DNA of 64,000 bases from Moniliella sp. 'wahieum' (Eukaryota). Of this stretch, positions 1 to 63,826 are shown one piece after another. The DNA is taken from NCBI GenBank assembly GCA_003971905.1, contig RSEE01000005.1:744001-808000 (forward strand), read 5' to 3'. Numbering within the stretch: the stretch's first letter is position 1; every line of letters begins with the position of its first letter. The notes below the pieces were generated by a model that had not been told where the DNA came from, did no database searches, and saw nothing but the letters and a program-made list of their open reading frames with translations. The translations under genes and the position numbers were made by a program.

Positions 1-400
1 AACGCCGCGTGACGCACTTGGTCTTGCATTGCACACTTGTGTTGCTCCGGCAGGCGGTGTTGGGCGCAGAATTGGAGCTTGCAGTGCGGGCATTCGCCCA
101 CCAGCCGCACCGCAGCATCCCGGCACTGGGCGTTGGCACCCTCCTGGGTCAGCTGGCCTGCATTGTGTTGGCAGCGCTTCTTGCCTCCGCCGCGGAGGCG
201 GAGAACGAGCGCAGGTCGTCGGACGGGAGCGACTCGGCATCGGCGACCCACGAGTGGGTTGCGGGAGAGAAGAGCCGCTGCTCGTCTACCGCAAAGCCAG
301 CTAGGCCGTGGAGGAGGGCCTTGGCCTGGGCGCCGGTGGCGCCAGCGGGGAGGGAGAGGGGCCAGGCGTGGCCGGACACGGAGCGGACAGTGAGCTGCAT
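1..400 (-). CDS. Ubiquitin-like domain + AN1-type zinc finger protein (Tmc1/ZFAND-like); 3' end runs off the window
   Basis: ATG at 400 gives MQLTVRSVSG...DEQRLF (UBL-like). Another frame near the window edge gives CRDAAVRLVGECPHCKLQFCAQHRLPEQHKC, matching the AN1 C-x2-C...C-x2-H-R-x-P-E-x-H-x-C pattern. The join needs an intron or frameshift. Confidence 0.7.
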
Positions 401-1379
401 GGCGGAGGGGGGGGGGTCAGGAGGGGAGGAGGCAGGACGGCAGGCAGACGAGGGAAGGCAGAGGGGCAGGGGGCGTACGAAAGCGAAGGGCGGGGGAGGA
501 GAGAGAGCGGAGGCGGGAGGCGGAGGTGGAGGTGGAGGAGGAGGAGGAGAAAAAGAGGGGGAGGTGTTATCGGGGCTGCTCAGCGGGGGCGGGGCGCTGG
601 TTCGAGGGGCCAGGCGACCTGCCGTCTGGGCCACAGCCGGCCGGCTGAGGAGAGCCTGCGACTGCGTTGGTGAGTGCCTGGCGGAGGCCGCGTCAGCGCG
701 CCAGCCTCAGCCCGACGCCACACATTAGGTCAGCACCCCCCTCACTCGTCACTTGTCCATGCCACTCGCCGGCTGTTCCTGAGCCCTGCAGCACGGCGCC
801 AGTGTGTCTCCCTGCATGTCCCACATGACATCATCGCCATGGCGATCTTCCGTCTTCGCCATCATTCGTCAGCGTCATGCATCATTCACGCACGCCTCGC
901 CTCAGCGCCTTGCGCTGGCCTCCATCACCGATCCGCCTCGTTCAGCCATTCGGCCCTTTCAGTCGGCGTACTCAGATCCTCAGAATGCACTCCATTCTGA
1001 ACTCGGTCTGAGTCTTGCATATTCCACCGTTTTTCTCCGCAGCTTCACCCGTCACGGCACTATACTGCCTTGGCCAGTTTCGGCCACTTTTTCGGCAGGC
1101 TTCGGCCGTTGCTTCGAGACCATTGAGGTGGTGCGCTCTCTTGCTTGATCTTGTGCGCCTTTTGCCAACTCATGTCCGACATCAACGTTCAACGTTCAAC
1201 CCATACACTGCCATGCTGCGCATGCTATGGGTCCTATCATAGTGGCAATAGCTACTCCGCATAGACCAATCGCATCTCAGATCTCTCACACCCATCCTCT
1301 AGGAGCCCCCCGGCGCGATATAGAAGCACTAAACATTTGGCAGTAGGCCATGGCTCGAATCAGTAGTTACTCGTTGCCA

Positions 1380-2841
1380 CTAGTCGTCGGCAACCCGAGG
1401 GTACACCCTACTCTGGGCCGCCTTGTACTGCTCCCGCACCACCGGCGACGCCACCGGCTGGAGAATGGTGTCTGTCGGCGTCACCCACTTGGGTGCGAGC
1501 CGAGCAGAACCCAAGCCGCCTGCACTGCACCTCCACGGGCCACATACTCCCCTGGGGTAGGCACCTGGATCGGGGCGTCAAACACGTGACGCGCCACCTG
1601 CTGCACGGCCTTGTTCGACGCCGCTCCACCAATCAGGACCATACGACGTGCCTCGACGCCTCTTTGATCAGCGCCGCCACGCCTGCAGCGAACAGAGTAG
1701 ACCCTCGACGTAGGCCCGGGCCAGGTTGGCGCGCGTACAGTTGGTTTGAGTCATCCCCATCAAAGAGGCGGTAGCGTCTGGCAAGTTCGGCGTCCGCTCT
1801 CCGACAAAATAAGGGATAAGTGTCAGTCCCGCCGCGCCCGGCGGCGCTTGCAAGGCGAGATGGGCCAGTTGCTCCACATCCACGCCCAGGAGCTCACACC
1901 CAGCTCGCAAGATCAAGGCGCCATTCAACGTGCAGACCAAGGGAAGCACTCGTCCATCTGCAGCACAGAACCCAGCAACGGTGCCGGTGGCATCAGACGG
2001 AACCTGATCGGTGGGCGCAAAGACTGCGCCGCTCGTCCCGATCGACACCACCACATCGCCCGGCTGCACGCCCAGACCCAATGCGCCGCCCGCATTGTCC
2101 CCCGCACCTGGACCAACCAGGATGCCATCCACTGTTTCTCCAGCCCGCTCATTCGGCGCCAAGACGCGCGGCAAGATAACATGATTGTTCTCTTGGGGGG
2201 AGCCGGCTTGCCTCGCTTTCCGGCCAAAGGCCAGCTCAAACAAGTCAAAATCGTACTGTCCTGTGTGGGAGGACCAGTATGCCGTCCCGCTCACGTCCGA
2301 CCGGTCTGTGACAAGCTTCTCGAGATCCGGTCCACGAGGCGCATCGGCACGGCCTTGGGGACCGTAGCCCATCAGCCGCCAGGTAAGCCAATCATGTGGC
2401 AGGGCAATCGCCGCAACACGACGCGCATTGTCTGGCTCTGCATCGCGCGCCAACGCACCTTGGACGCAGTGAAGCTTGCCACCGGCACTAACCCCGTTCG
2501 CGCCGCATACTTCTCCGCCCCCCCCACTTCGGCAATCAGCGTGCGCGCTGCACCGGCGGAGCGGGTATCGTTCCAAAGCAATGCTTTCCGCACTACCCTA
2601 CCGTCTTTATCAAGGGCCACCATGCCATGCTGCTGCCCGGCAATCGAGATGGCCTTGACGTCGGCAAGCCGCCTGCTTGCTTGATGGCCAGGTGAAGCGC
2701 CTCCCACCAGGCTTCGGGATCGACCTCCGTCCCGCCCGGATGAGATGCGCGACCTTCTCGAACAGGAGTTCCCGTATGGGCATCAAGGATTACTACCTTG
2801 CACCCCTGGGTTGAGGAATCGACTCCTGCGACGAGCGGCAT
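1380..2841 (-). CDS. xylB: Xylulokinase, FGGY family, bacterial (actinobacterial) XylB type; intronless, several apparent 1-nt frameshifts
   Basis: Joined ORFs 2593..3288, 2372..2707, 1668..2576 plus C-terminus read manually: [100 protein letters not shown]...RVADD* (stop 1380-1382). Confidence 0.9.
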
Positions 2842-4371
2842 GGTCGGGGGCGATGGCAAGACGAAGGGGCACCATGCATCCTGGCCAAATCGGGCCAGAG
2901 AAGAAGCGGCTGGCGGGCCGCTGCAAAGGCCTGGTGGCGTGGCAGAGCGTGGCACGTGCGGACCGGGGCAGGCTGGCCGCCGCATTAGGTAACCACCCGA
3001 GCAGATCCTGCAAGTTTCCGTGCCGAAAGTGGAGGCAAGAATATTTCTTTTGCGAGTTTTGCTTCTTAAGAAGCCAAGCCGGCCGCCTTCTCTGCCTTTT
3101 TCCCACCATCCCTCAACCCAGCCCAAGCACAGCGGATCGGGTACCAACGCAGCGACCCTATCCCCCAATGTCCTCTTGTGCTTCGTATCCGCCAGATCAA
3201 CTCCCTCCCGCCAGCATTGAGCGACAGCAACCCTTGCTAATTCAGGACTCCGCGCTATTCGGTGCGCGGATGGATCCGGGAAACGCAAGGAAGACCAACC
3301 GGCAGCCTATACGCATTATGCCGCCCCTGCCCTTTCCAGCGGGGTGGCATAAGAAAGGCGCGCCGACATCTCTTCCCCCCCTCTCATCTCCAATGCATAT
3401 CTTGGGTCAACTCACCTCGTCTGCTGGCAGTTTTTGTTTCGAACATCGTGTGGCCAGCTGTCCGTGTAGGATCCTCCATCCCGGCGAACGCCCTTGGCCC
3501 TTTTCCTTGCCTTGCGGTGTGATGCCCCGCCCCAGGCGGAGGATGGCAGAGCGAACGTTTTTGGGCCCGTATCTACCTGGTTCCGACGTTCCCGTCCGCG
3601 GGCGATTGTCAACTGGGTTCGTAAGGGGTCCTACATTCTTGGCCCAATGCATCGGTTTCTTTTATACTTGTGTGCGCATTTAGTGCCATGACCGACGTAT
3701 TACATGTGTAAGCCAGCATTATTACCGTAGTCACATCCTCGCCCTGCTGCGCCTGAATCGGAAGCAAGATGCAACACCAGCGTTAGGCAGATTCTCTGAT
3801 CCAGTCACTTTATCATATTCTCCTCCCACTGAAGATGTCGGCTTAGGTTATGATACACCAGAAAATGATGAGGAGGCGGTGGCTTGGAGGCCAGAGTTGG
3901 GCCTGGTGAGGTGAGCTGAGCTGGGGCGCATCTGTGTTGATCTAATAGTAGGAAACTGTTGGACTGGAGACAGGGGCAGAAGAGGTCCACAAGAGAAATG
4001 AAGGGAACAGGGGCAGCGTCACAGGCTGTGGACATGCTAGGACGATCTGCTGTGGGGAAACAAGTGGAGTCGAGATGAATCTGGTCTATTGACTGGGGTC
4101 CAGAGGAGTTCCCTTGTCCCTCTGAGTGGGCGGTTACGTGAAAAGGTGGAGAGGATCCATTGACATGGCGAAACGATACAGCCTCGCAGTAGGGTTGCTA
4201 CGGAAGTGCGTCATGTGCTCCCGCAGCAGGGCGGCACGTGGCGCGTATCTTGAGCGTGCGATATATACGTGGGTGGCGCTCCTCTCTCCTCCGCCATCCA
4301 CCCTCCCTTGCCGACGCCTCTGTGTGCTCCACTGCCTTCGTGTGCGCTGACTGCTGCGTCCTGCGCCGGCT

Positions 4372-6369
4372 ATGCCGCCGCCGCCCGCCGCCTCCGCCCA
4401 GCCTTCTGCCCTGTCCTCATGCTCCGCCAGCGCCACCGACAGCCTCCTCGCTCGCCCGAGCCCCCTCGGCGCCAGCGTCTCCATCGCCACCTCCATGTCC
4501 GCCTCCACCTCCACGTCCGCCTCTGCCTCCGCCCCCGCCTCCGCTTCCCCTTCTGTCTCTGCGCCTGCCTCCACCGCCCCCTCCACCGCAGCCTCCATTA
4601 GCCCCTCGTCCTCATCCCTCCAGCTCCCTCGCGGGTCCCACTCCTCTGACTCGGAGCCCTCCGATGCCCCCTCGCCCTGCCCACACCATCTGCCCAGCGC
4701 AGGGCTGGAGCTTGACACTGGCTTTGATCCGGACGAGCTGGATGCTGCATTTGGCTTCGCTATGCCCGCGTACCCGCCTTCCATTTCTCGTCCGCATATC
4801 TCAGCTTCGGCTGCATTCATGGTTCCCACAGCCTCGCTGGAAGACGAGCTGGAGGGGCTGGCGTTGCCCGACGCAACCCCCCTGGCCAATGGCATGGAGC
4901 AAGACTTGGAATGGGACCTGCCGGCCCCTCTCGAGGACCTCGGTGCAGTGATCGCCGTGTCTGGCCTAACGTATCCGATTCACCACCAACCAATAGCCCT
5001 CGATGTCCCTGGTCCAAGCTAAGCAGCGTGCCTGTATCTGACCATACCCGCGCCTCCTCAAGCAAGGAGCCCCTCCCTTCCCCGCCTCCCTCCCTCGCAC
5101 GACTCTTTCCTCCGTCTTTAGCCCTCGGAAGACCCAAATCTTCAAAGAGGGGAGGTAGCTTTCCTCCTACCGCGTTACTACTAATGAAGCTTCGCATCCT
5201 GTCACCTCGCACCAGGAGCTTGAACGTCGTCCGCTCAACGTCGCTGTTGCTACTCTGCGTGGGGCGCGCCTGCGCCAAAACACCCTCCCTGGACTGAGCA
5301 TCGTCACTGCCATGGGCTCTTTCTCCCCCCCAGGACCCACGGGGAGAGCACGGACGCCAATACCCTTTCTTTCCTCCTCACCTAAAGCCTCACCGAATGC
5401 ATCCCCCTGGCCACTCCCCAACTCGGGGGAGGGGGCACACTTACCCGCTCTGACTTCCAACGTGCGTCTCGATCACAAGGCTCGCCTGCCAGGTCGTCTG
5501 GGTCTCATGGCTTGATGGGATGGAGGAAACGACTGTCTCCCGTGCCACATGGCTTCCACGGGGCACACCCCAAGTCCCCATCGAGTACACCTGTGTCCAC
5601 CCCCAAGTTCACCACTGCCTCCACCTTGGGCACAGGGGCAAGTGTGCGTCCCTTGCTTTCCGAATCTGTCAGCTCTACCCCGGAACGCCGAAGCTTAACA
5701 GACGTGGTTCGTTCCCCGCGCCTTTCTGCGTTGGGCCTACGAAGCGAGACCCTACGCCCGCCTCGCCCAAGATCGGCAGGATCTGGCACTCTCGGAAGTC
5801 TCGGTCGCAGTGGGTGGTGGCCTCCTTTTCGGCGCCCTCTTACTCCGGAGGGCACATCGCCCTTGAACCCCGAACCGCAGGAGAAAAGGAGGAAGCGATT
5901 ACCTCTCCTCCTTCCCAAACGAGATCTGGGCGCCGCGATGATGGTGGACCAAATGCGGTTTGACCCGATCCGGCGCACTTGGTTGCGCATCGCACAAGAT
6001 GGGATCCAGGAAGAAGAAGACTTGCTCCGTCCCTTTGGCGAGATGGACGAGGACGAGGCTTGGCTGACAGGCAAAGTAGAGCGGGCCGAGACACCCACCC
6101 CTTCTTCCTTGGCCCCAGGGGAGACCAAGCCGTTAGAGTCGCAACCAGCATCACTGCGAGTGCGGATGCGCAACTCGGGCCCCCTTCTATCTGGGAAAAA
6201 GTCTTCGATCTGGGCCTTGGGCCATTCTCTTCGCCGTCCAACATCCGGCAGCTTCGACCCGGCTCTGGTCCCACTAGGTCTGACGCCGGAGCTGGAACAG
6301 AATTGTGAACAAGCCGAACAGGTCCACCGGGACCAATGCCGGCTGCTGGGGATTGATCGTGGGAGATGA
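4372..6369 (+). CDS. Low-complexity Ser/Pro-rich protein, possibly Byr4/Bfa1-like (SIN/MEN two-component GAP subunit); frameshifted
   Basis: ORFs 4372..5022 and 5512..6369. Motif MMVDQMRFDPIRRTWL followed by an acidic patch (EEEDLLRPF) and a C-terminal LTPELEQNCEQAEQVH resemble fungal Byr4 M-x-F-D-P-x4-W blocks (from memory). Confidence 0.4.
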
Positions 6370-7208
6370 CATGACGCTCTCTCCCCCCACCCCACTCCTT
6401 TTTCCGTCTCACCGCGTTTGGGCGTTGTTTGTCATTTTGGGCGCTGGACGGTGGGCTCCAGGCTTGTCTTTTGGATCGGTTGATCTGTGTGCAGGGCGAT
6501 CCAAGTCTCCCTGCTTTGTACTTTTGACGGCCCGATCGGTTTTTTTTCGCGCGCCAGATATATACCAACCAACACTTGTTCTTTTTCTTGGGCCTGCCTT
6601 TCGGGGCCGTATTTCTACCTTCTTTTCTTTGTTTGCCTTATCCCTCCTCGCCGCCTGCCCAGCCTATCCGCCCTGCCTCCCCTGCGCGGCGGCCATCGAT
6701 GATCTATGCTTCTTCCCTGTTGTACGCTTCGTATCCTACCCCACCCCGGCCATGCTTGACCATAAGCTCTTCGTCCCGTGTCACTCGGGTTCCCAGGCAT
6801 ATCCTCCTTCTTTTTTCACTTCTGACTGGGCAGCATAGACACCTCCACAGGAGCAGCGCATCATGCAGGCGAAGCGAGAGCAGGCGGGGCCGTCCGCCCA
6901 ACCCCCAAGCGTGAGAAGCCCAGGGGCCAAGGGGAGCCAGATGGGCGCTGAGCCTCAGCTGAGGGCGCTCGGCTAGCGACGCGCCCTTCCGCCTGGTTCC
7001 GCCTGCCCGGACAAGCCCGGAAGGCCACCAGCCAGGGGCTGCGGCTGCCTGTTTGGGCAGGCGGCGCGCCCGCACGGGGCCAGTGGCGACGTGGCAGCGC
7101 ACGGCAGCGCAGCTGGGCGCCCCCGGCGCGCCCACTCTAACACCGCACGCGCCGCTGCCCCACCACTGGGTGGTAGCACACGCGCCTCTTCCCTCGGCCG
7201 TTGGCGCC

Positions 7209-10200
7209 ATGCAGGCCGTCGACGACGCGTCCGCTGTGTCCGCCGTGTCCACCAGGACCGCCCCCGACGCCGCCCCCACCACGCTCCGCCAGCTGCGCCA
7301 GGGATACAGCCCCCACATGCCCCACCCGCTCCCCGCCGTGCTCCCCTCGCTCCCCGCCGCGCTCCACCGCGCCACCGCCAGCCAGAGCACCACCCTCAGC
7401 GCCTTCATCGCCAGCCCCACCCGCTCCAGCCCCGGCCTCCCGCCCCTCCCCGTCTCCCCCGCCTCGCCCCCGCCGCCCCGCTCCCGCCACACGCCGCCGC
7501 CGCCGCCCCCGACCACGACGCCCTGCACCGCCTCAGCTCCACTACCACGCCCTCTACCACTTCCTCCACGACCACCTCGACCGGCGTATGTCCCCCCCCT
7601 CCCCCTGCCCTCCCGCGCGCTGACCTCCCACCCGCCAGCCGAACGCGCCGGCCGCTCCAGTGCGCGCGACAAGCTCACACGTCTCAGTCGCCAGCAGTTT
7701 GCCGAGCTCTCCACCGACGTGTACGACGAGCACCAGCGCCGCATCCTGCCCTCGCCCCCCCTCGCGCTCCCGCCGCGCCACGACTTCCATCCCAAGCGCA
7801 ACCATGCTCGCCAAAAGCTAGCCAACCTGCCCATCTCTCGCTTTAGCGACCTGGCCGCAGACGTGTTTGCCGAGCTCGAGCGCCGCTTCCCCGACCTGCG
7901 TTCTCGGCCCGCCTTGTCCCACCTCAGCATCCCCCCCGCGCCCCCCGACCCGCCGCCGACCCGGCCCCTGTCCTCCACCAGTTCCGACGCAAGGAGCTTG
8001 GCCAGCCGCGCAGCCGCACCCACTCCCTTCGCTCCCCGCCCTCAGGCACGACTGCGCCCACCAGCGCAGAAGACGATTCACTCCCCGCTCCTTCCCGCGC
8101 ACCGCCGCCGCCGCCCACGGCTCCTGCTGTCTCTGCTGTCTGCTCCTCCGGCGCCCCAGCGGGCCCCACCACCACCGCCTCTCCTCCTCCACAGCCCCAC
8201 GCACGGAATGGGATCCTTATCTGCCACCGACCGCTCCTTCACCTCCACCCTCGACACTGACTCTCCCGATTCTCTTTCCCCCACTACCGGTGCCTCCGGT
8301 TGGCCGCAAAGTCGGTCCTCGGGCGCACTCGGATCGCCACCGATGGCGTCCCCGGCCGCTGCGCCGCCCTTGTCACCCGCGATTGCCGCACTGCAAGGCG
8401 AAAGCACGCCTCGGGCCGGCGAGTCGCCGCACTTTGACTGGCGCACGCCCTCGGTCTCTCTCCTACGGCGGAGGAGGAGGAAGAGGAAGAGGTCGCGTCG
8501 GATTCCGAAGCGGCGCATGAACGGGCCCGCGCCTCGTTCGCTTCCTCGGTAGGCGGCCTGTTTGGATTCGAGGCGCCCTCGCCGATGCAACCACCTGACC
8601 ATGGTGCGGTGGCCAAGTGGGCCGAGGAAGCGCGTACCCACTTCCCCGCCCCGACGTCCGAACGCGATTCGCTTTCGCCCCGCCTTCCCACCTGTTGGAC
8701 ACGCCTAGGTCCGAGCGCCAAGCGACGCAGATTCCAGCAGACGTGCGGGCCGAGCTCGAAGCCGAGCTGGCTGCGTCGCAGCAAGAGTTGCTCGAGGACC
8801 GTAAGGCGCACAAAGCAACTCGACCGTCTCCTTGCGCAGCACAACCAGGCGATCGAGGCGCTGCAGGTGGCGCATCAAACTGAGCTCGAAGGTATGCGCA
8901 CCGGTCACTTTCGCTTCCTGGACGATGTACGTGTTCAGCACACGGAGGAAATCGAGGCGGCGGTCCAACAGGCTTTGGAGGAGCAAGCCAGCGAACAGGC
9001 CGCGTTGCAGACTGCGTTGAATGAGGCTGTGGCACGGGCAGATGAGCATGAGAGTTTGGCAGCCCAAGCGTCCATCCTCATGGCTCAACTGGAGCAGGAG
9101 ACAGCCCGACCAAGGAGGCGGAGGAAACGTTGGCGGCACAACAGAACGAGTGGGAGGAAGAACGGAGTCTCCTTGTGCAACAACATGAGGCCCAGCTGCA
9201 GCGTCAGCAAGAAGAAGAAGACCAGCGGTTGCTCCTCCTTGAGCAGGAAACGCAGGAGAACCAAGAGCAACTCGGCCGCCTGACAAGGGAAAACGAAGAG
9301 CTCAAGCTCTTGCTGGAGCAGGAAAGGGACCAACACACAACGGCACTCTCTTCCCTCGAGGAGGAGCATCGCGTTGCGTTCGCCTCACTTGAGCAGGACC
9401 ACGCTGCGGCGCTGGCAGCACAAAAAGAAGCACGACGCAGCGCTTGGCTCGATGGAGGAGCAGCATGCCACTTCGCTCGCGGCGGCCCAGGAAGCGCATG
9501 CGCTCGTTAGCCGACAACTTGACGATCTCACACGTACCCACCAGGACCACGTACGTACCGCCGCCGCTCCTTGGATGAAGGGGGCGTGGCCCTCACGTCA
9601 TTACAAGAGCGGGTGACCCAACTGGAAGCCCAGGTGGCCGAGGAACAAGAGGGGAAACAGCGGGTAGAAGCATTGCTTGAGGCGGAACAAGCACGCTCGT
9701 TGGACCTGCAGCCCAGCTCGCGCTTGCTCAGCAGGACCAAGAGGAGCGCCAAGCGCTCGTACACCTCGAACAGCAACGACAAGAACTCGAACGTGCGCTG
9801 CACGACTTGGAGATCCAACGCAACGTGGCGAGCGAAGCGTTGGACCGGCTGCGAAGTCAAATGGCCTCTCTCCGTCGGCATGGACGTACCGTCAGTGGTC
9901 CCACGCATCCAGTCGAACGCGCCTCCTCTTCTGATGCCCCCACCGAGGCCGAAGACAGTTGGCGCGAGAGCGCCCGGTTGCCCCCGCTGTCGCACGTGAA
10001 TGACAAGGGGGAAATCCAATGGGACCATTGGATTTCGTTGCAACGCGCGCTGGACCAGTTGGTGGGCAGGGTGCACGAGCCCTGGACGAGCAAAGGGGCG
10101 GTGCAAGCCGTGGTGTTGGCGCACAGCCTGGTGATGCGCGATGCTCAGTCCTGTCCGGCGCCCGAGACGGAAACCTGCACGGGGCCTTGCAACGTGATGG

Positions 10201-11179
10201 CCATCAGCGATGCCGCCTCGACGCCCGACATGGTACCCAGCAGTCTACTCCTTGCTGCTGTGACCGAGGTGGTGGTAGTGCGGTGGCGGTGGCCAAACGG
10301 GTGGGCGTACGGTCGGGCGCGGACGCAGCCGAGTCCAAGGGACTCCGCCCGCTCCACATCCCCGCCTCGCAGCCCCGACGCCGCAACGTTTCCCTCACCT
10401 TGGCAATGGGGGAACCGCGACGACGAAGAGCAAGTTTGCCCTACAAGACCAAGATGGTGGACTTGCCACCGCCGCCAGTGCCCTCGCTTCCTTCCCACTC
10501 TACCCCGCAGTCGTCCCAGGCCGGTGGCGCCTCGTCTCCTGCCGCCGTGGGACCTGCCTTGGCCTCGCGCGCGGCCGACGAAGTTCCCGGCGCACGAGGC
10601 TCTGCCGTGCGCTTCCCTTCCCGCGAAGGCGGGCAGGAGGAACAACGGGTACCGGAAAGTGTGGTGAGCGAGTACGACACGCCTGCGCAACCCCCCTCGG
10701 TGGGTCCACGGGGTCGGTAACCGAATTTTTTGCCTCAGCCTCCGAGGGCATCTTGTCCTCCTTCTCCTTGGGCACCATCGCCACTTTGCCTTCGCACCCT
10801 TCGCTCGCGCACGATGCGTCCCCCCCACCCCGCCACCGACGCGTCCCATCCCCATTCCCATCCCTATCCCCATTCCCATCCCTATCCCCATTCCCATCCC
10901 CATCCCCATTCCCATCCCCATTCCGAGTCTGAGCCCGAACCCGAGGCGGAGCAAGATCCGGTGCGCAAACGACCCCTGCACCGGCCCGTGCCCCCGGCTG
11001 CGCTGGAACCTCCCGTGCCCGCACAAATACACCAGACCCACGCGCCTCCGTCCCCTGTTGCCGGGCGACGAAGCGGACCGGACCATGGTGCATTTGCCGG
11101 ACGACTGGGACTCAGAGAGCGACTACGGCGAGGACTAAACGCTTGCTACTGGCACGGGCAAGGTGGGAGCGTGACGTGA
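7209..11179 (+). CDS. SPA2: Spa2-like polarisome scaffold (two GIT/Spa2-homology repeats, long coiled coil); frameshifted, end approximate
   Basis: ARDKLTRLSRQQFAELSTDVYDEHQRR and HPKRNHARQKLANLPISRFSDLAADVFAELERRFP at ~7660-7895 are tandem SHD repeats. Gln/Glu-rich coiled-coil ORFs run from 8585 to 9900. Confidence 0.85.
10846..10924 (+). repeat. Hexamer-based microsatellite (CATCCC/CATTCC/TATCCC) encoding an (HP/HS/YP)n tract
   Basis: Directly visible: catcccattcccatccctatccccattcccatccctatcccc... Confidence 0.85.
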
Positions 11180-17749: not shown

Positions 17750-18100
17750 GTTGGGCAAGCGTAGGCAGAGCCGGTGGAGTCTGTCGGCGGTGTTGGGGGA
17801 GTGGGGTCGTAGCAGCCACGCTGGCTGTTGTTGTACTTTGAGTGTGCGTGATTCATGGGTGCCTATGGTCCTCCAAGGGCCAGGCCGAGTGACGCTGACG
17901 ACGCGTGGGGGGGCTTACGTACGCGTCCTCCCTTCCACCAGCAATTCCGCCAGGCGGCCACCCAGGCGGGCGCTGCGCTCGGCCGAGCCGCCCAAGGCAG
18001 ACGATGGCAGCGGCGCCGCTGGCAACCGCATCCACGCCATCCCTCCTCGGCCGCCACCAGCACCCGTACCACCGCCACCGCGCCGGTCCCTGAGCCCGCC

Positions 18101-19062
18101 ATGTCCTTGTTCCCGCGGACGATCCGCGAGGTGTGGGCCGAGAACTTTGAGGCTGAGATGGAGCTGCTGCGGCACGTGATTGACCGCTACCCATACGTTG
18201 CAATGGACACCGAGTTCCCCGGCATTGTCTCGCGCCCCATTGGCCGCTTCAAGGGCAGCTCCGACTACCACTACCAGACGTTGCGATGCAACGTGGACCT
18301 GCTCAAGATCATCCAGCTCGGCCTGACCGTCTGTGACGAGGACGGCAACGAACCACCGCCGAACGAGCCTAGCATTTGGCAATTCAACTTCCGCTTCAGC
18401 GCAGGCCAAGATATGTGTGCTCCCGATTCGCTCGATATTTTCACAATGCCGGGCTCAATTTTGAGCGGCACGCCACCTCTGGCATTGACCCTAGCCATTT
18501 CGGCGAGCTGCTGATCACCTCGGGCTTAGTCCTATTTGACAATGTCAGATGGGTTTCCTTCCACAGGTACGTTGTATTCCCCTCGATTCTGGCAAGAGAG
18601 GAAACGCTAATCAAGCCACTCCTGCTGAACAGTGGGTACGACTTTGGCTACCTGCTCAAGGTGGTCACTAATGCGCCACTCCCTTTGACCGAGGCTGCGT
18701 TTTTCGATGCGCTCAAGCTCTGGTTCCCCAAGATTTACGACATCAAGTACCTGATGCGGTACTGCAGCAATCTCAAGGGCGGGTTGCAGGACCTCGCTGA
18801 CGAGTTGCAAGTCCAACGAGTCGGGCGGCAACATCAAGCTGGAAGCGATGCCCAGTTGACCGGAAGTGCCTTTTTCCGTTTGCGCGCCCAGTACTTTCAT
18901 GGCGTGATTGACGACAGCAAACTCGGCTGTCTCTATGGCTTTTCGGCAAGTAACGGGCCCGAGGCGGTGCGTGGATACACGCAAGCCCAGGCCCAAGCGA
19001 TGGCCCAAACGCCGCAATCCTTCAACTTTATCTCCGCTGCGCCGCCCAAAGAGGGAAGGTGA
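18101..19062 (+). CDS. CAF1: CCR4-NOT deadenylase Caf1/Pop2 (DEDD); intron 18567-18632, one frameshift
   Basis: IREVWAENFE, YVAMDTEFPG, YQTLRCNVDLLKIIQLG, WQFNF, WVSFH|SGYDFGY, LKGGLQ, HQAGSD. Confidence 0.95.
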
Positions 19063-29000: not shown

Positions 29001-32000
29001 ACACTCTGATCCAGTTGTTTCCGCTTTACCGCCTTCATATTTGAAAAATGCCTATCTACCTCTCCCGAATCAGTCGGAGGGAATGCGAACGCAGCCTGGT
29101 TCCCACTCTACTTCGGCGAGAGGGTACGCTGCAGCTCCTATCCCAACCACGTCCCCCGTCACCCCAATTCTAAGGCGTCCCATGAGGAACAAGGACGGAG
29201 ACACTATTCAACGCCTTCCTTACCGATGGAGGCCACCGGGCCGGCCCTTCCTCCGCCACGCAACTTGCCTCCCACACCTGTGACGACGAACGTCTCCTCC
29301 TCGCTTTCCCTTGTGCCTCCGGCGCCGTCGTCATCGACTTCCAACCCACCAATCCTACTCCCCGTCGCCGACCCACCACGGCGCCTCCCGCTTACTCCTG
29401 ATGTTTCTTCTTATTCCACCAGCTCGTATGCAGTTCGTGCCCGCTGCGGCCCCGTTCCCCATCTCAAGCGAGGGGCAGGTGGGCTCGTCCATCTCGTCCG
29501 CCTCGGTTTCGGATGAGTCTGACCTGTTCCACGCCGTGTCCGGTCACAGCTCTGTCTCTGATCGCGATAGTGAGACCAAGCGCAATTCGGGCCCCCTCAG
29601 CCCAGCTTCTCCGACGTCGCCGCCGCCTTCCACCACGCCGTTGCGTACGAGCATGGCCGCAGCGGCCAACACATCCAGTCCCCCCGCTCCGCACCAACAG
29701 TCCTTAATCCCTGCCACTTCAGTCCACTCCAATTCCACAACTTCAATATGGCCTGGGGTGTGCGAGAGCGAGCCTCTCAACGGCGGGGCGAATGTATCAC
29801 CTGACGCTGCTTCCATGACAGTTGCGTCGGATGAGTCAACGTTGACTCTTCGTAACAATCACATCCTGAACGTATTGGGAGAGGCGACGCGGACCCCGAC
29901 GGCATCTAGTCCCGCTGGGGGACAGGAGCAGGACCAGCTTCATTCTGTTCGCACTCTGGCTTCCGCTGGTAGGAAGGAGGAGGTGACCGAAAGAAGGGGG
30001 GAGGACATGGCCCTTGTCCGATCCCAACTGGAACCCGAATCCAATGTGCCGAACGAGGCGGGCTTGGCTGTACCTGGTCACGCACTTGCTCCCCAGGAGG
30101 AAGACGCTTTCACCATTTACTCCCAGTCGGACTTGCCTGAACCGAGTGATCCGACGGTACGCATGACAGATCCGCTCTATGCTTCCCAGGAGGAAGACGC
30201 TTTCACCATTTACTCCCAGTCGGACTTGCCTGAACTGAGTGATCCGACGGTACGCATGACAGATCCGCTCTATGCACCTGTGACAACTCTGTTGAAGGAG
30301 ACCAGGGCTCATGCCGACAAGAAGAAGCTGGACCGGGAACAGATACAGCAGCTCCAAGCGAAAGTGGAGCAACAATCTGTTTTCGAGGGGTTGCCCAGGC
30401 GTTTGCCTGGTCAGGATGGCCAAGTTGATCAGGACGCCTCTTTGGCACAGGTTCGCGATGCGACCTTGGCCAAGCCGACTCTGGACGAGCAGAAACATGG
30501 ACGAATTAGTCAATTGCTTGCGAATCCGGCAGAGGACGCGGATCAATTTACCGTCTATTCTGCCAGCAAATTGCCTGACGTTGATCAAGCAACAGTGCGG
30601 TTTGATGATCCGCGGCAAGCTAGTGTACGCCAAGTGTTGACGGGAAACTCGGTCGTGGCGACCGAGGTCCAAGTCCTGGTTTCAGATTCGTGCACGATCT
30701 CCTCCGGAGCTGATTTGCCTGATGTGAATGACGCAACGGTGCAGGTAAATGACATGCCGCTACCTGTTTCGAAGCAAGAGCTCCCCGGGGCAAGCAGCAA
30801 ATCAATGCCGCCCAAGTCGGAGTCTGCATCGCAAGAATATTGGATGTCCCCGGACCTTGGCTAAGGAGTGCCATCGCCTACGCGACTTGATCCCTACGTA
30901 CGAGGACTCAATCCCCACCCCACGCGCGGCGGTGCAACCTGCCAGCACGGTTCAGTCCCCCTCCCCACTCCGTATTGATACACGCATTGACACGATCTCA
31001 GCCGCCCCAAATTTGGCGCCAATTCCGAGTGCCGACGGTGAGTCGAGTCCCACGATAGCCACGGGCTCATCGACAAGTGCAATGAACTCTCCCGTGGAGC
31101 CAGAGGAAGAACTTGCCTCGAATGATTGGGCCATGCGTCCCACGCAGAAAGCCGTCTACAACCACCTCGACGAAATCTTCCCTGAGCATGACCTGGACAA
31201 ACCTGTGATTGCACCGCCTCCCGCTTACTCGCCCACTTCGGTTGAACCCCCTAGCACCGCTGCCAATTCCTCTGCCAACGACAAGTTCACTTCCCTCGTG
31301 CCCTCTAAGTCGCCGAATGCTGCTACTGAATCGGCACGCAAGGCTGCCACCCCGCCTCCCTCAGCGTGGAATTCTGGGGATGGGCCAGGGTCGACGTCAG
31401 GCTCAGTGTCCAATGGTCCCAAGGGTCGCGCATTGCTCCGTCCAAGCAAGTCAATCCGTGTTGTGGCCCGGGACCGGATGCGGGACATGGACCGTGCTAG
31501 CCGAGCTGGGGCAAAATGGGGGGCGCCGTTATCCGTAGGCGGAGTACCCGGATGTGGGGTGCTCGGACCCGTGAAGTTCGCCCGGGAGCCTCTTTTGCTG
31601 AGATCCAGCGAGGCCAGCAAACTGGCCGGGACGAGAAGTTGACCGACGTGCCTACGTTCGTGTGGGCCAAAGGTGGCTTGATTGGCCGCGGCAGCTTCGG
31701 CCACGTGTATCACGCAATGAACGTGACGACGGGCGATGTGTTGGCGGTGAAGCAAGTCGAGCTTCCATCGACCCGTCAGACTTGGCAAAGTCCGATAGCA
31801 AAATCTTGGTCAATTCCCTCGAGTCGGAGATTGAGACGCTCAAGGTGTTGGAACACCCTAACATCGTGGCCTACCTTGGTTTTGAGCGCTCAAACGGCTT
31901 CCTCTCAATTTTCCTCGAATACGTGCCCGGCGGGTCGATTGGTTCGTGCTTGCGCAACCATGGCATGTTGGAGGAACCAACTGTTGCTTACTTTACACAC

Positions 32001-32709
32001 CAGATCCTTGATGGGCTCAAATATCTTCACCAAAACGGTCTCATTCATCGCGACATCAAAGCTGACAATATCCTGGTCGACTATGACGGCATTTGCAAAA
32101 TTTCTGACTTTGGCACAGTTCACCGTTCGAACAACGGTGCCGGCAGGTCCGTCAAAGGCACTATCCCCTGGATGGCTCCCGAGGCCCTTAGCGTGCCATC
32201 ACAAGGGTACTCGGCCAAAGTTGACATATGGAGCCTCGGGTGCGTGGTGCTTGAGATGCTTGCGGGCAAGCGGCCGTGGCCGGATCATGAGATCCCACAA
32301 GTCCTGTTTCAGGTACGTTGTTTTGTTGGGACCTCGTGAACCTCTTGCTGGCGTACGAATGTTTGACTGACGTGATGCATAGGTTGGTTATTCTCAATCG
32401 CCCCCGCCGGTGCCCGAATGGGTGCAAATGTCCCCGGCGGCCAAGAACTTTTTGGCCAACTGTCATGTCATTGATCCGGAAACGCGGCCGACGGCAGAGC
32501 AACTTTTGACCCACGTGTTTCCGTACAACATTCCACCGGGTTGGACATTCCAGTCGAGCAAACTGTATCGAGCGATCGTCAACAATCCTTGTCGCAAGTC
32601 GACCCGGCGCAGGCCTGCGCCCCGAGACAGCGTTTCCGCCGAGCCATCGGGTCAGCAACGTGAACGCGCGCCTGGCTCAGCAGCTTCCCCCGTCAACGAG
32701 GACAAGTGA
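26021..32709 (+). CDS. BCK1: MAP kinase kinase kinase, Bck1/Mkh1 type; introns ~28078-28140 and 32313-32382, frameshifted
   Basis: C-terminal kinase: WAKGGLIGRGSFGHVY, AVKQVELP, IFLEYVPGGSI, HRDIKADNILVD, KISDFG, WMAPE, YSAKVDIWSLGC. Bck1-type blocks WAMRP...HLDEIFPEHDLDKPVI and ENFTVVDITG. Confidence 0.88.
30088..30275 (+). repeat. 93-bp tandem duplication, in frame (31 aa)
   Basis: Units start at 30088 and 30181 with 2 mismatches: APQEEDAFTIYSQSDLPEPSDPTVRMTDPLY / ASQEEDAFTIYSQSDLPELSDPTVRMTDPLY. Confidence 0.95.
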
Positions 32710-44223: not shown

Positions 44224-44781
<558 letters not shown>

Positions 44782-61941: not shown

Positions 61942-63826
61942 TCAAGCACTCGCATGCGTCGTCTCGAGCTGAACTTCCTCCTGCTTCTCTTCCGGTGAAG
62001 CCAGGGCGCCATCGTGCCAATCGCCCTCCGTCTTTCCCTTTCCCGCTTCACCGACGATCGCCTGAGCAGCGACGGCGGCGCGCTGTTGCCGATCAATCTC
62101 GGCCTGCACATCGTCGCGAGAGGACATGCCCTTGGGGAGCCAGGAGCGCGATGTCCACGCGCGGCAGTTGGGGTCGCAATACATAGCGTTGACCTGCTCC
62201 AGGTTCAAGTCCTTTGTCTCATACACAAAGAAGTAGGCAATCACCGCATTGGCCAGGTTGCAACCGGCAAAGATGTACCCGTATGCGAACCCAATGTCGG
62301 CGGTGATGGGAGTAGTGAACAAGGCCAAGAGGAAGTTCCAGATCCAGTTGGAAAGAGTAGCGAGCGAGGCTTGGCGGGCCCGTGTACGCGAGTCAAATAC
62401 TTCGCCGGTAAAGAGCCAAATGCCGGGAGCCCAGGTACTTGCGTATCCCAAGATAAAGAAGCAGCCCGAGCAAATCATCAGTTTGCCGATACCCGAACTG
62501 AGATGCGGGTCGCCAAGTTTCTTAATGCCGGTCTGCGGATTCGCCTTGTTTCCTGCCACACCCGCAGTGGCAAATACGATGAGCCAAGCGCTGCACCACA
62601 CTCCGCCCCAGATGAGTGGCAAGCGTCGCCCCACCGCTTCCAGCATCCACAACCCAAACAATGTGCAAACAAAATTGACCGCGCCAAAGATAATTTGGGT
62701 GACAAAGGGGTCGGTTACGCCAACGGGAACCATGATCTGGGTTCCATAGTAAAAGAAGTAGTTGGCGCCTGTCAGCTGCTGCCCCATCTGCAAAACCATG
62801 CCCAGTAAAGTACGGTAAAGCGTCTTGTTCTCACCCGGAACGTCTCGGCCCAGGTAACCTTGTTGTCGCGCTCTTCTTGGGCCATAGTGAGGATCTCGTA
62901 AACTCTGCCTCGACATACGGGTCCTTGTCGGCTGCCGTTTTGCCACGTACGATGGCGACCGATTCGCGCGCCTCGTCGTATCTCCCATGAAGTGCAAGCC
63001 AACGAGGTGACTCGGGGCAAAACTGAATAGTGACCGCAAGGAAAGCACCAAAAACATGCCCAGACCAACGGGGACGCGCCACTGGGTTGCATGAGAAGTA
63101 TGCCGAGGGACAGTGCCCGGGGTGGTGCCATAAATGTCTTTCCAGTTGCAGCTGCCAGCACAGCGTGAGGCAATCGCAAAGCAATACGCAATCAGAATCC
63201 CGGCCGTGATAGCCCATTGGTAGGTAGCCACCAGCGTGCCGCGCAGCTGGCGCGGAAGACACTCGGCCTGGTACACAGGCACGCACAGGACAGAGCGCCA
63301 ATGGCCAAACCAGTGATCAGACGCCCCACGGCAAATTGAGCCCAGGCCCAAAACGTGCAGAGTTGGATGATGATACCAATAAAGAAGACCACCACCTCGT
63401 ACTGCATCGCACGACGACGGCCAAAGTAGTCAGCCAAGTAAGCACCAATCAGGGCACCAAACATCGTTCCGATCGACATGAAGGAAACAATTAGACCGTC
63501 GAGCCAGGGGTTTGAGGCCTTGCACTGGATGGCACCCTCACAGACATCAGAGGCGAGGTTGCTGGGGTCCTTCTGGTGTTCAGTGACAGTGCCAAACCGG
63601 TAGAGAAAGTCTTTTGTGTTCGAGATGCCCGAGATCTGAATGAATGAAGCGGGGGGGGTCAGCTCTACAGCTTGTACGCACAGGCAGGAATAAGAAGAAA
63701 AAAAGGGGGCACATATACCTGACCAGTGTCATAGCCAAACAGAAAGCCTCCCATACTGCTGATGAGGCCGACAACCGATCGCGGTGTAGTCAACAGTGGT
63801 GTTGCGCACAGTAATGTGCGTGGCAT
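61942..63826 (-). CDS. MFS sugar porter (hexose transporter family); intron 63636-63718, frameshifts
   Basis: SMGGFLFGYDTGQ|ISG, ADYFGRR, GRLITG, PRQLRG, PESPRWL, QQLTGANYFFYYG, VGRR, ETKDLNLEQV. Confidence 0.93.

Follow-up and report, generated by a model that had tools for sequence, protein, structure and literature searches.

The xylB-like locus and its surroundings

The window, by which we mean the whole 64-kb stretch of DNA analyzed here, carries on its minus strand a whole XylB-like gene (FGGY xylulokinase) at positions 1380–2841. The start codon occupies 2841–2839 with GACC directly 5′ of it, placing the ATG in an ACCATG context, and the gene ends with a TAG at 1382–1380. Between these points the coding sequence is read in six pieces, all on the minus strand. 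The first (2665–2841, 59 aa, ending in QAGGL) corresponds to positions 2–57 of the XylB profile, and the second (2450–2662, 71 aa, ending in KVRW) to positions 67–134, with a one-base break upstream of it at about 2663–2664. Beyond a further break at about 2448–2449 lies the third piece, which runs for 255 aa from RDAEPDN to LLCSLQ (1683–2447) and carries the GAGDNAG and IGTSG motifs. The eight residues GVAALIKE (1660–1683) sit between two breaks, at about 1683–1685 and 1658–1660. The fifth piece (1496–1660, 55 aa, ending in LLGS) was delimited by the XylB profile together with direct reading of the frames, and the sixth (1383–1493, 37 aa), separated from it by a break at about 1494–1495, supplies the C-terminus, PKWVTPTD...VADD.

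A frameshift-aware alignment to the intact protein P0001 (495 aa) was collinear from the first residue to the last, with 366 of 495 residues identical. As it required no intron-sized insertion, the gene is intronless. The preliminary description of this DNA, made from the letters alone, had reported an intronless FGGY gene with an ACCATG start; its coordinates proved exact, and the motifs that it quoted were all found in the translations of the gene, spread over three frames.

Profile searches assigned the pieces to the FGGY family. FGGY_N (PF00370, cut-off 28.8 bits) matched the second piece with 51.6 bits over profile positions 69–136, and the third piece added positions 141–220. FGGY_C (PF02782, cut-off 27 bits), a domain that the frame breaks split, matched the third piece with 29.5 bits (positions 2–133) and the next piece with 26.6 bits (positions 151–196); intact relatives carry both domains on record. 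The NCBIfam model for XylB, TIGR01312, was matched collinearly over positions 2–57, 67–134, 138–376 and 393–439 with 32.2, 81.4, 190.2 and 31.0 bits, respectively. The summed score of the broken pieces is thus about 335 bits, against a curated equivalog cut-off of 380.25, which the intact relatives P0002 (387.4 bits) and P0007 (384 bits) exceed; P0001 (377.1 bits) and a bona fide XylB from Leifsonia (374.9 bits) both fall just below it. All eight motif stretches that we checked are kept in the window gene, and nearly every position in them matches named bacterial XylB. The gene contains DSSTQ, GAGDNA, GTSG and GGAASN, which we take to be the nucleotide-binding and catalytic motifs of ASKHA/FGGY proteins. 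No second FGGY gene was found within the 64-kb window.

The surroundings of the gene are eukaryotic. To its left lies an ORF with an AN1-type zinc finger (zf-AN1; 3–416, minus strand; PF01428, E = 1.8e-10), and the nearest recognizable neighbor to its right encodes a Spa2-homology-domain (SHD) protein (6963–8549, plus strand; PF08518, E = 4e-23). ORFs of at least 150 aa in the window gave, besides Spa2 SHD, the families VWA, CAF1, cyclin, protein kinase, RhoGAP with LIM, BAR, ubiquitin-S27a, ribosomal P0 (RPP0), CLASP and MFS sugar transporter. No bacterial-type gene was found adjoining xylB, and the best tblastn match of a Microbacterium XylA in the 64-kb window had an E-value of 1.6, in line with the earlier placement of the gene between fungal genes with no xylA beside it. 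A search for flanking repeats that might hint at an insertion mechanism returned low-complexity matches only around the gene.

Several other features of the region were recorded. The interval that separates xylB from the Spa2-like gene (2842–6960, about 4 kb) contains GGA/CCT-type low-complexity repeats and long Pro/Ala/Ser/Gly-rich ORFs on both strands (among them 4137–4979, 4351–5019 and 5386–6366), the ORFs there having no Pfam match. GC content rises to 0.70–0.78 at 6750–8500, in and around the Spa2-homology-domain ORF, while most of the first 12 kb lies at 0.55–0.65. The TrAA12-like match of a 203-aa ORF at 10503–11111 (minus strand) is weak (E = 1.2e-5; 24.2 bits against a cut-off of 30.9); the ORF may represent part of a gene for an AA12-type oxidoreductase. 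The CAF1 ribonuclease domain at 17852–19059 (plus strand) is split over two frames, which recover profile positions 1–76 and 213–320 and leave out the middle part; the frame change, somewhere in 18373–18511, may reflect either an intron or one more break in the assembly.

At the other end of the window, the MFS sugar transporter gene (61945–63728, minus strand) gave some indication of where the genome belongs. Among the 120 matches listed for it, the closest were three unnamed proteins at 65–71% identity, and the named relatives, at most 50% identical, are all, as we understand their taxonomy, Basidiomycota. The relatives of the transporter suggest that the collection lacks an annotated genome close to the lineage of the organism.

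Relationship to actinobacterial xylulokinases

To place the kinase among known proteins, we used a 258-aa middle piece as the query against a collection of 5.8 billion proteins, in which 7859 of 8000 scored candidates reached E ≤ 0.001 and the best 120 were listed. Among these best 120 of 7859, the top two were intact unnamed proteins, P0001 (495 aa, 79% identity) and P0002 (493 aa, 77%), followed, at up to 66%, by XylB of Leifsonia, Agromyces, Mycetocola, Paramicrobacterium, Microcella, Leucobacter and Brevibacterium. All named relatives among the matches listed were Micrococcales XylB, with identities of 62–66%. These proteins have the same length as the window gene product, and with Leifsonia sp. 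LS1 XylB the identity extends over the full length (319 of 477 residues). A 14-residue region is common to the window gene and the Microbacteriaceae/Brevibacteriaceae XylB proteins. Clade-specific substitutions set the window gene apart from these proteins.

A search of the PDB with P0001 retrieved the xylulose kinase 3i8b with 435.4 bits (E = 2.6e-129, P0001 residues 3–467), the E. coli-type enzyme 2itm with 140.8 bits, and human xylulose kinase 4bc2 with 43.5 bits in a partial match (residues 238–450). The best solved relative of the clade, 3i8b, which we take to be the Bifidobacterium adolescentis enzyme, comes from a different actinobacterial lineage, and the comparison was made through P0001 rather than through the broken window gene. 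Judged by these scores, the window gene is not of the eukaryotic Xks1/XYLB branch, with which it shares the FGGY superfamily and presumably the reaction. The preliminary description had likewise set it apart from eukaryotic Xks1.

Searches for a closer source returned nothing nearer. When 1.84 billion cluster representatives were searched exhaustively, no cluster was closer than P0001 and P0002, the best reaching 59%. No close relative of P0001 was found in a collection of 185,579 prokaryotic species, which held one Microbacterium locus at 61%; a metagenome match on a single 511-kb contig stood at 63% and is not a close relative either. When P0007 was searched against 401 sampled Microbacteriaceae genomes, 302 had matches, with listed identities of 54–63%, so that none of the 401 is the source of the AT-richer group to which P0007 belongs (see below).

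For phylogenetic analysis, the window protein was entered with an X at each break. Two trees were built, both containing P0001, P0002, 17 named hits and the bacterial sequence L001. A quick tree of 64 rows additionally held 11 unnamed hits and 32 full-length cluster representatives, and a careful IQ-TREE analysis of 40 rows held 3 unnamed hits, 14 representatives, P0391 and the bacterial sequence L002; the remaining hits and representatives were omitted for size. Two distant unnamed representatives served as the root. The trees have no fungal Xks1 row, and the PDB scores stand in for it.

In the careful tree, the window protein grouped with P0001 (support 99/87) and then with P0002 (100/99), two proteins to which it is 75–77% identical. 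This trio was joined at 98/97 by a sister group of the form (P0006, (P0073, (P0007, P0391))), and the resulting seven-row clade was nested within a 27-row clade (95/86). Of the named rows from Microbacteriaceae and Brevibacterium, this larger clade holds all except Microbacterium, which is placed just outside. The quick tree agreed with this arrangement. The four members of the sister group are intact, XylB-like and markedly AT-richer in amino-acid composition (FYMINK 0.19, versus 0.07–0.11 in the named actinobacterial rows). This group raises the possibility that the transfer predates the basidiomycete lineage and reaches beyond it.

Base composition separates the window gene from its bacterial relatives. 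Its GC3 is 0.672–0.674, compared with 0.708 for host coding sequence (5118 nt; 0.57–0.85 in single host genes) and with 0.93 and 0.91 for the bacterial xylB genes L001 and L002. Being near the host genes and far from bacterial xylB, the gene has taken on the base composition of its host, which means long residence in the fungus and not contamination. The argument from composition rests on GC3, since RSCU correlations discriminate weakly (gene–host 0.65, gene–bacteria 0.54–0.56, host–bacteria 0.69–0.79).

Taken together, sequence similarity, the ML tree, the host-adjusted composition and the eukaryotic genes on both sides support a bacterial, Micrococcales-type ancestry of the gene and its residence in a fungal chromosome. 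The preliminary description had proposed exactly such a bacterium-to-fungus transfer and had named an ML tree as a check on it. All these lines agree with the proposal, the tree by nesting the gene within bacterial XylB, with fungal Xks1 not among its rows.

Frame breaks in xylB and in neighboring genes

The five breaks in the window gene lie near 2663, 2448, 1684, 1659 and 1494, and each amounts to a net loss of one base. Those near 1684 and 1659 were merged into one by the alignment and were split by direct reading of the frames (...LLCSLQ / GVAALIKE / GVEARRMV...). Once the frames are corrected, no stop codon interrupts them.

We then used other genes in the window as controls. The ubiquitin-S27a fusion gene (44285–44757, minus strand) has a one-base break at about 44371–44374 (CPSPTCGP / GIFMSYH): positions 1–25 of the S27a Pfam profile end at nt 44371 and positions 25–44 resume at nt 44374 in another frame, leaving no room for an intron between them. 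In the MFS sugar transporter gene the frame shifts by a net −1 at four points (63280, about 63050, about 62900 and 62833), and these breaks were reproduced with all five homologues used, two of them from named species; three of the four cancel out and are thereby hidden within one long ORF. In a MAPKKK-like kinase gene (31669–32520, plus strand), one break lies near 31775. There the frame change falls in a variable insert and is probably a one-base break, the alternative being an unusually short intron. RPP0, over 942 nt, has no break.

All 11 breaks, five in xylB and six in its neighbors, are net −1. Their density is 3.4 per kb in xylB (5 in 1459 nt) and 1.6 per kb in the neighbors (6 in about 3.8 kb), and the two densities do not differ significantly (conditional binomial P = 0.16, Poisson P = 0.08; against the transporter alone, P = 0.44). 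At columns conserved in at least 90% of sequences, the window gene is changed in 1 of 77, P0001 in 2 and P0002 in none, and the terminal branch of the window gene is 0.14 long, compared with 0.27–0.28 for the intact P0001 and P0002. Neither measure points to relaxed constraint on the conceptual protein.

Because the neighboring genes carry the same net −1 defect, we read the breaks in xylB as quite probably errors of sequencing or assembly. The assembly appears to carry frequent one-base deletions in coding regions, and, given such errors, apparent pseudogenes elsewhere in it are suspect.

Origin and possible role of the gene

The reading that we favor, at a probability of roughly 0.7, is that a Micrococcales-type xylB was acquired by an ancestor of the basidiomycete and kept without xylA, that it is intact in the living organism, and that the breaks are artifacts. 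It has to be weighed against an unlikely reading in which the transfer is real and the gene is a decaying pseudogene in this strain, its five frameshifts being genuine mutations. The density of breaks, nominally twice the average of the neighbors, speaks for gene decay. Against it, net −1 breaks are also seen in the transporter, which has four, and in ubiquitin-S27a, an essential gene. All 11 breaks are of one type, the corrected frames are free of stops, a single conserved column is changed, and neither P0001 nor P0002 has a terminal branch as short as that of the window gene.

Two further explanations dispute the transfer itself. Bacterial contamination or a chimeric assembly join, which would put the gene outside the fungal genome, draws some plausibility from the position of the gene just 1.4 kb from the left edge of the window, but it is very improbable in view of the host-like GC3, of the eukaryotic ORFs flanking the gene within a single contig, with neither xylA nor another bacterial gene adjoining, and of the distance to bacterial sequences: at most 66% identity to named bacteria among the best 120 of 7859 matches, at most 63% for P0007 among the matches listed in the 401 Microbacteriaceae genomes, and a single relative of P0001, at 61%, in the prokaryote species collection. 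Under vertical inheritance the gene would be an ancient FGGY paralogue of eukaryotes that most fungi have lost; alternatively, the bacterial genes would derive from a fungus-to-bacteria transfer. The seven-row clade does hold unnamed sequences only, but nothing specific favors this account, and we regard it as extremely improbable: the clade is nested, at the support values given above, in a large and diverse bacterial radiation (7859 hits, and the gene in 302 of 401 Microbacteriaceae genomes), every named match among the best 120 of 7859 is bacterial, and the human enzyme scores 43.5 bits where 3i8b scores 435.

Under the favored reading of a transfer followed by retention, an ancestor of the basidiomycete would have acquired a D-xylulose 5-kinase gene (xylB, FGGY family) from a Micrococcales-type actinobacterium. 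The gene would have arrived without its partner xylA and been kept as a single, intronless gene for a cytosolic-type enzyme. A cytosolic location is expected because, in the alignment, the N-terminus is not extended beyond that of the bacterial proteins. In the living organism the gene would most likely be intact, the five breaks being single-base deletions introduced by sequencing or assembly. The enzyme would phosphorylate D-xylulose with ATP to xylulose-5-phosphate, which would enter the pentose-phosphate pathway. From the sequence we infer the activity and substrate of the enzyme as well as the expression and intact frame of the gene, which may thus supply or replace xylulose phosphorylation. 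By analogy with the fungal transporter, whose closest listed relatives (65–71%) are likewise unnamed, the gene would presumably be conserved in related fungi.

A broader reading, which we consider quite unlikely, is that one ancient Micrococcales-to-eukaryote transfer founded the whole seven-row clade, which would then be eukaryotic throughout, and that the kinase became the working and perhaps the only xylulokinase, replacing the native XKS1.

The acquisition of individual bacterial metabolic genes by fungi is well documented. At four of the five distinct bacterial loci examined (L001 and L003 being the same place and counted once), xylA is the gene directly upstream of xylB, an arrangement in keeping with a xylulokinase function of the donor-type gene; L002 has no xylA within 6 kb. 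Such linkage is no prerequisite for the identity of the enzyme. The window gene differs from bacterial XylB in being a lone gene in a eukaryotic chromosome, with a GC3 of 0.67 instead of 0.91–0.93. In the anaerobic gut fungi (Neocallimastigomycota), a xylulokinase of bacterial origin has already been described, listed with xylose isomerase among the horizontally acquired genes (10.1101/487215). There the kinase occurs together with the isomerase in an early-diverging anaerobic lineage, whereas here it occurs alone in a basidiomycete-like genome. Searches of the open-access full-text literature turned up no actinobacterial-type xylB described from a basidiomycete.

The locus adds a clean case of bacterium-to-fungus transfer and no new principle. 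Actinobacterial XylB variants adapted to the eukaryotic cytosol would be candidates for the engineering of pentose utilization in yeasts. Should the gene prove to be the main xylulokinase of its host, a core step of the pentose pathway would be replaceable by a bacterial enzyme in a basidiomycete.
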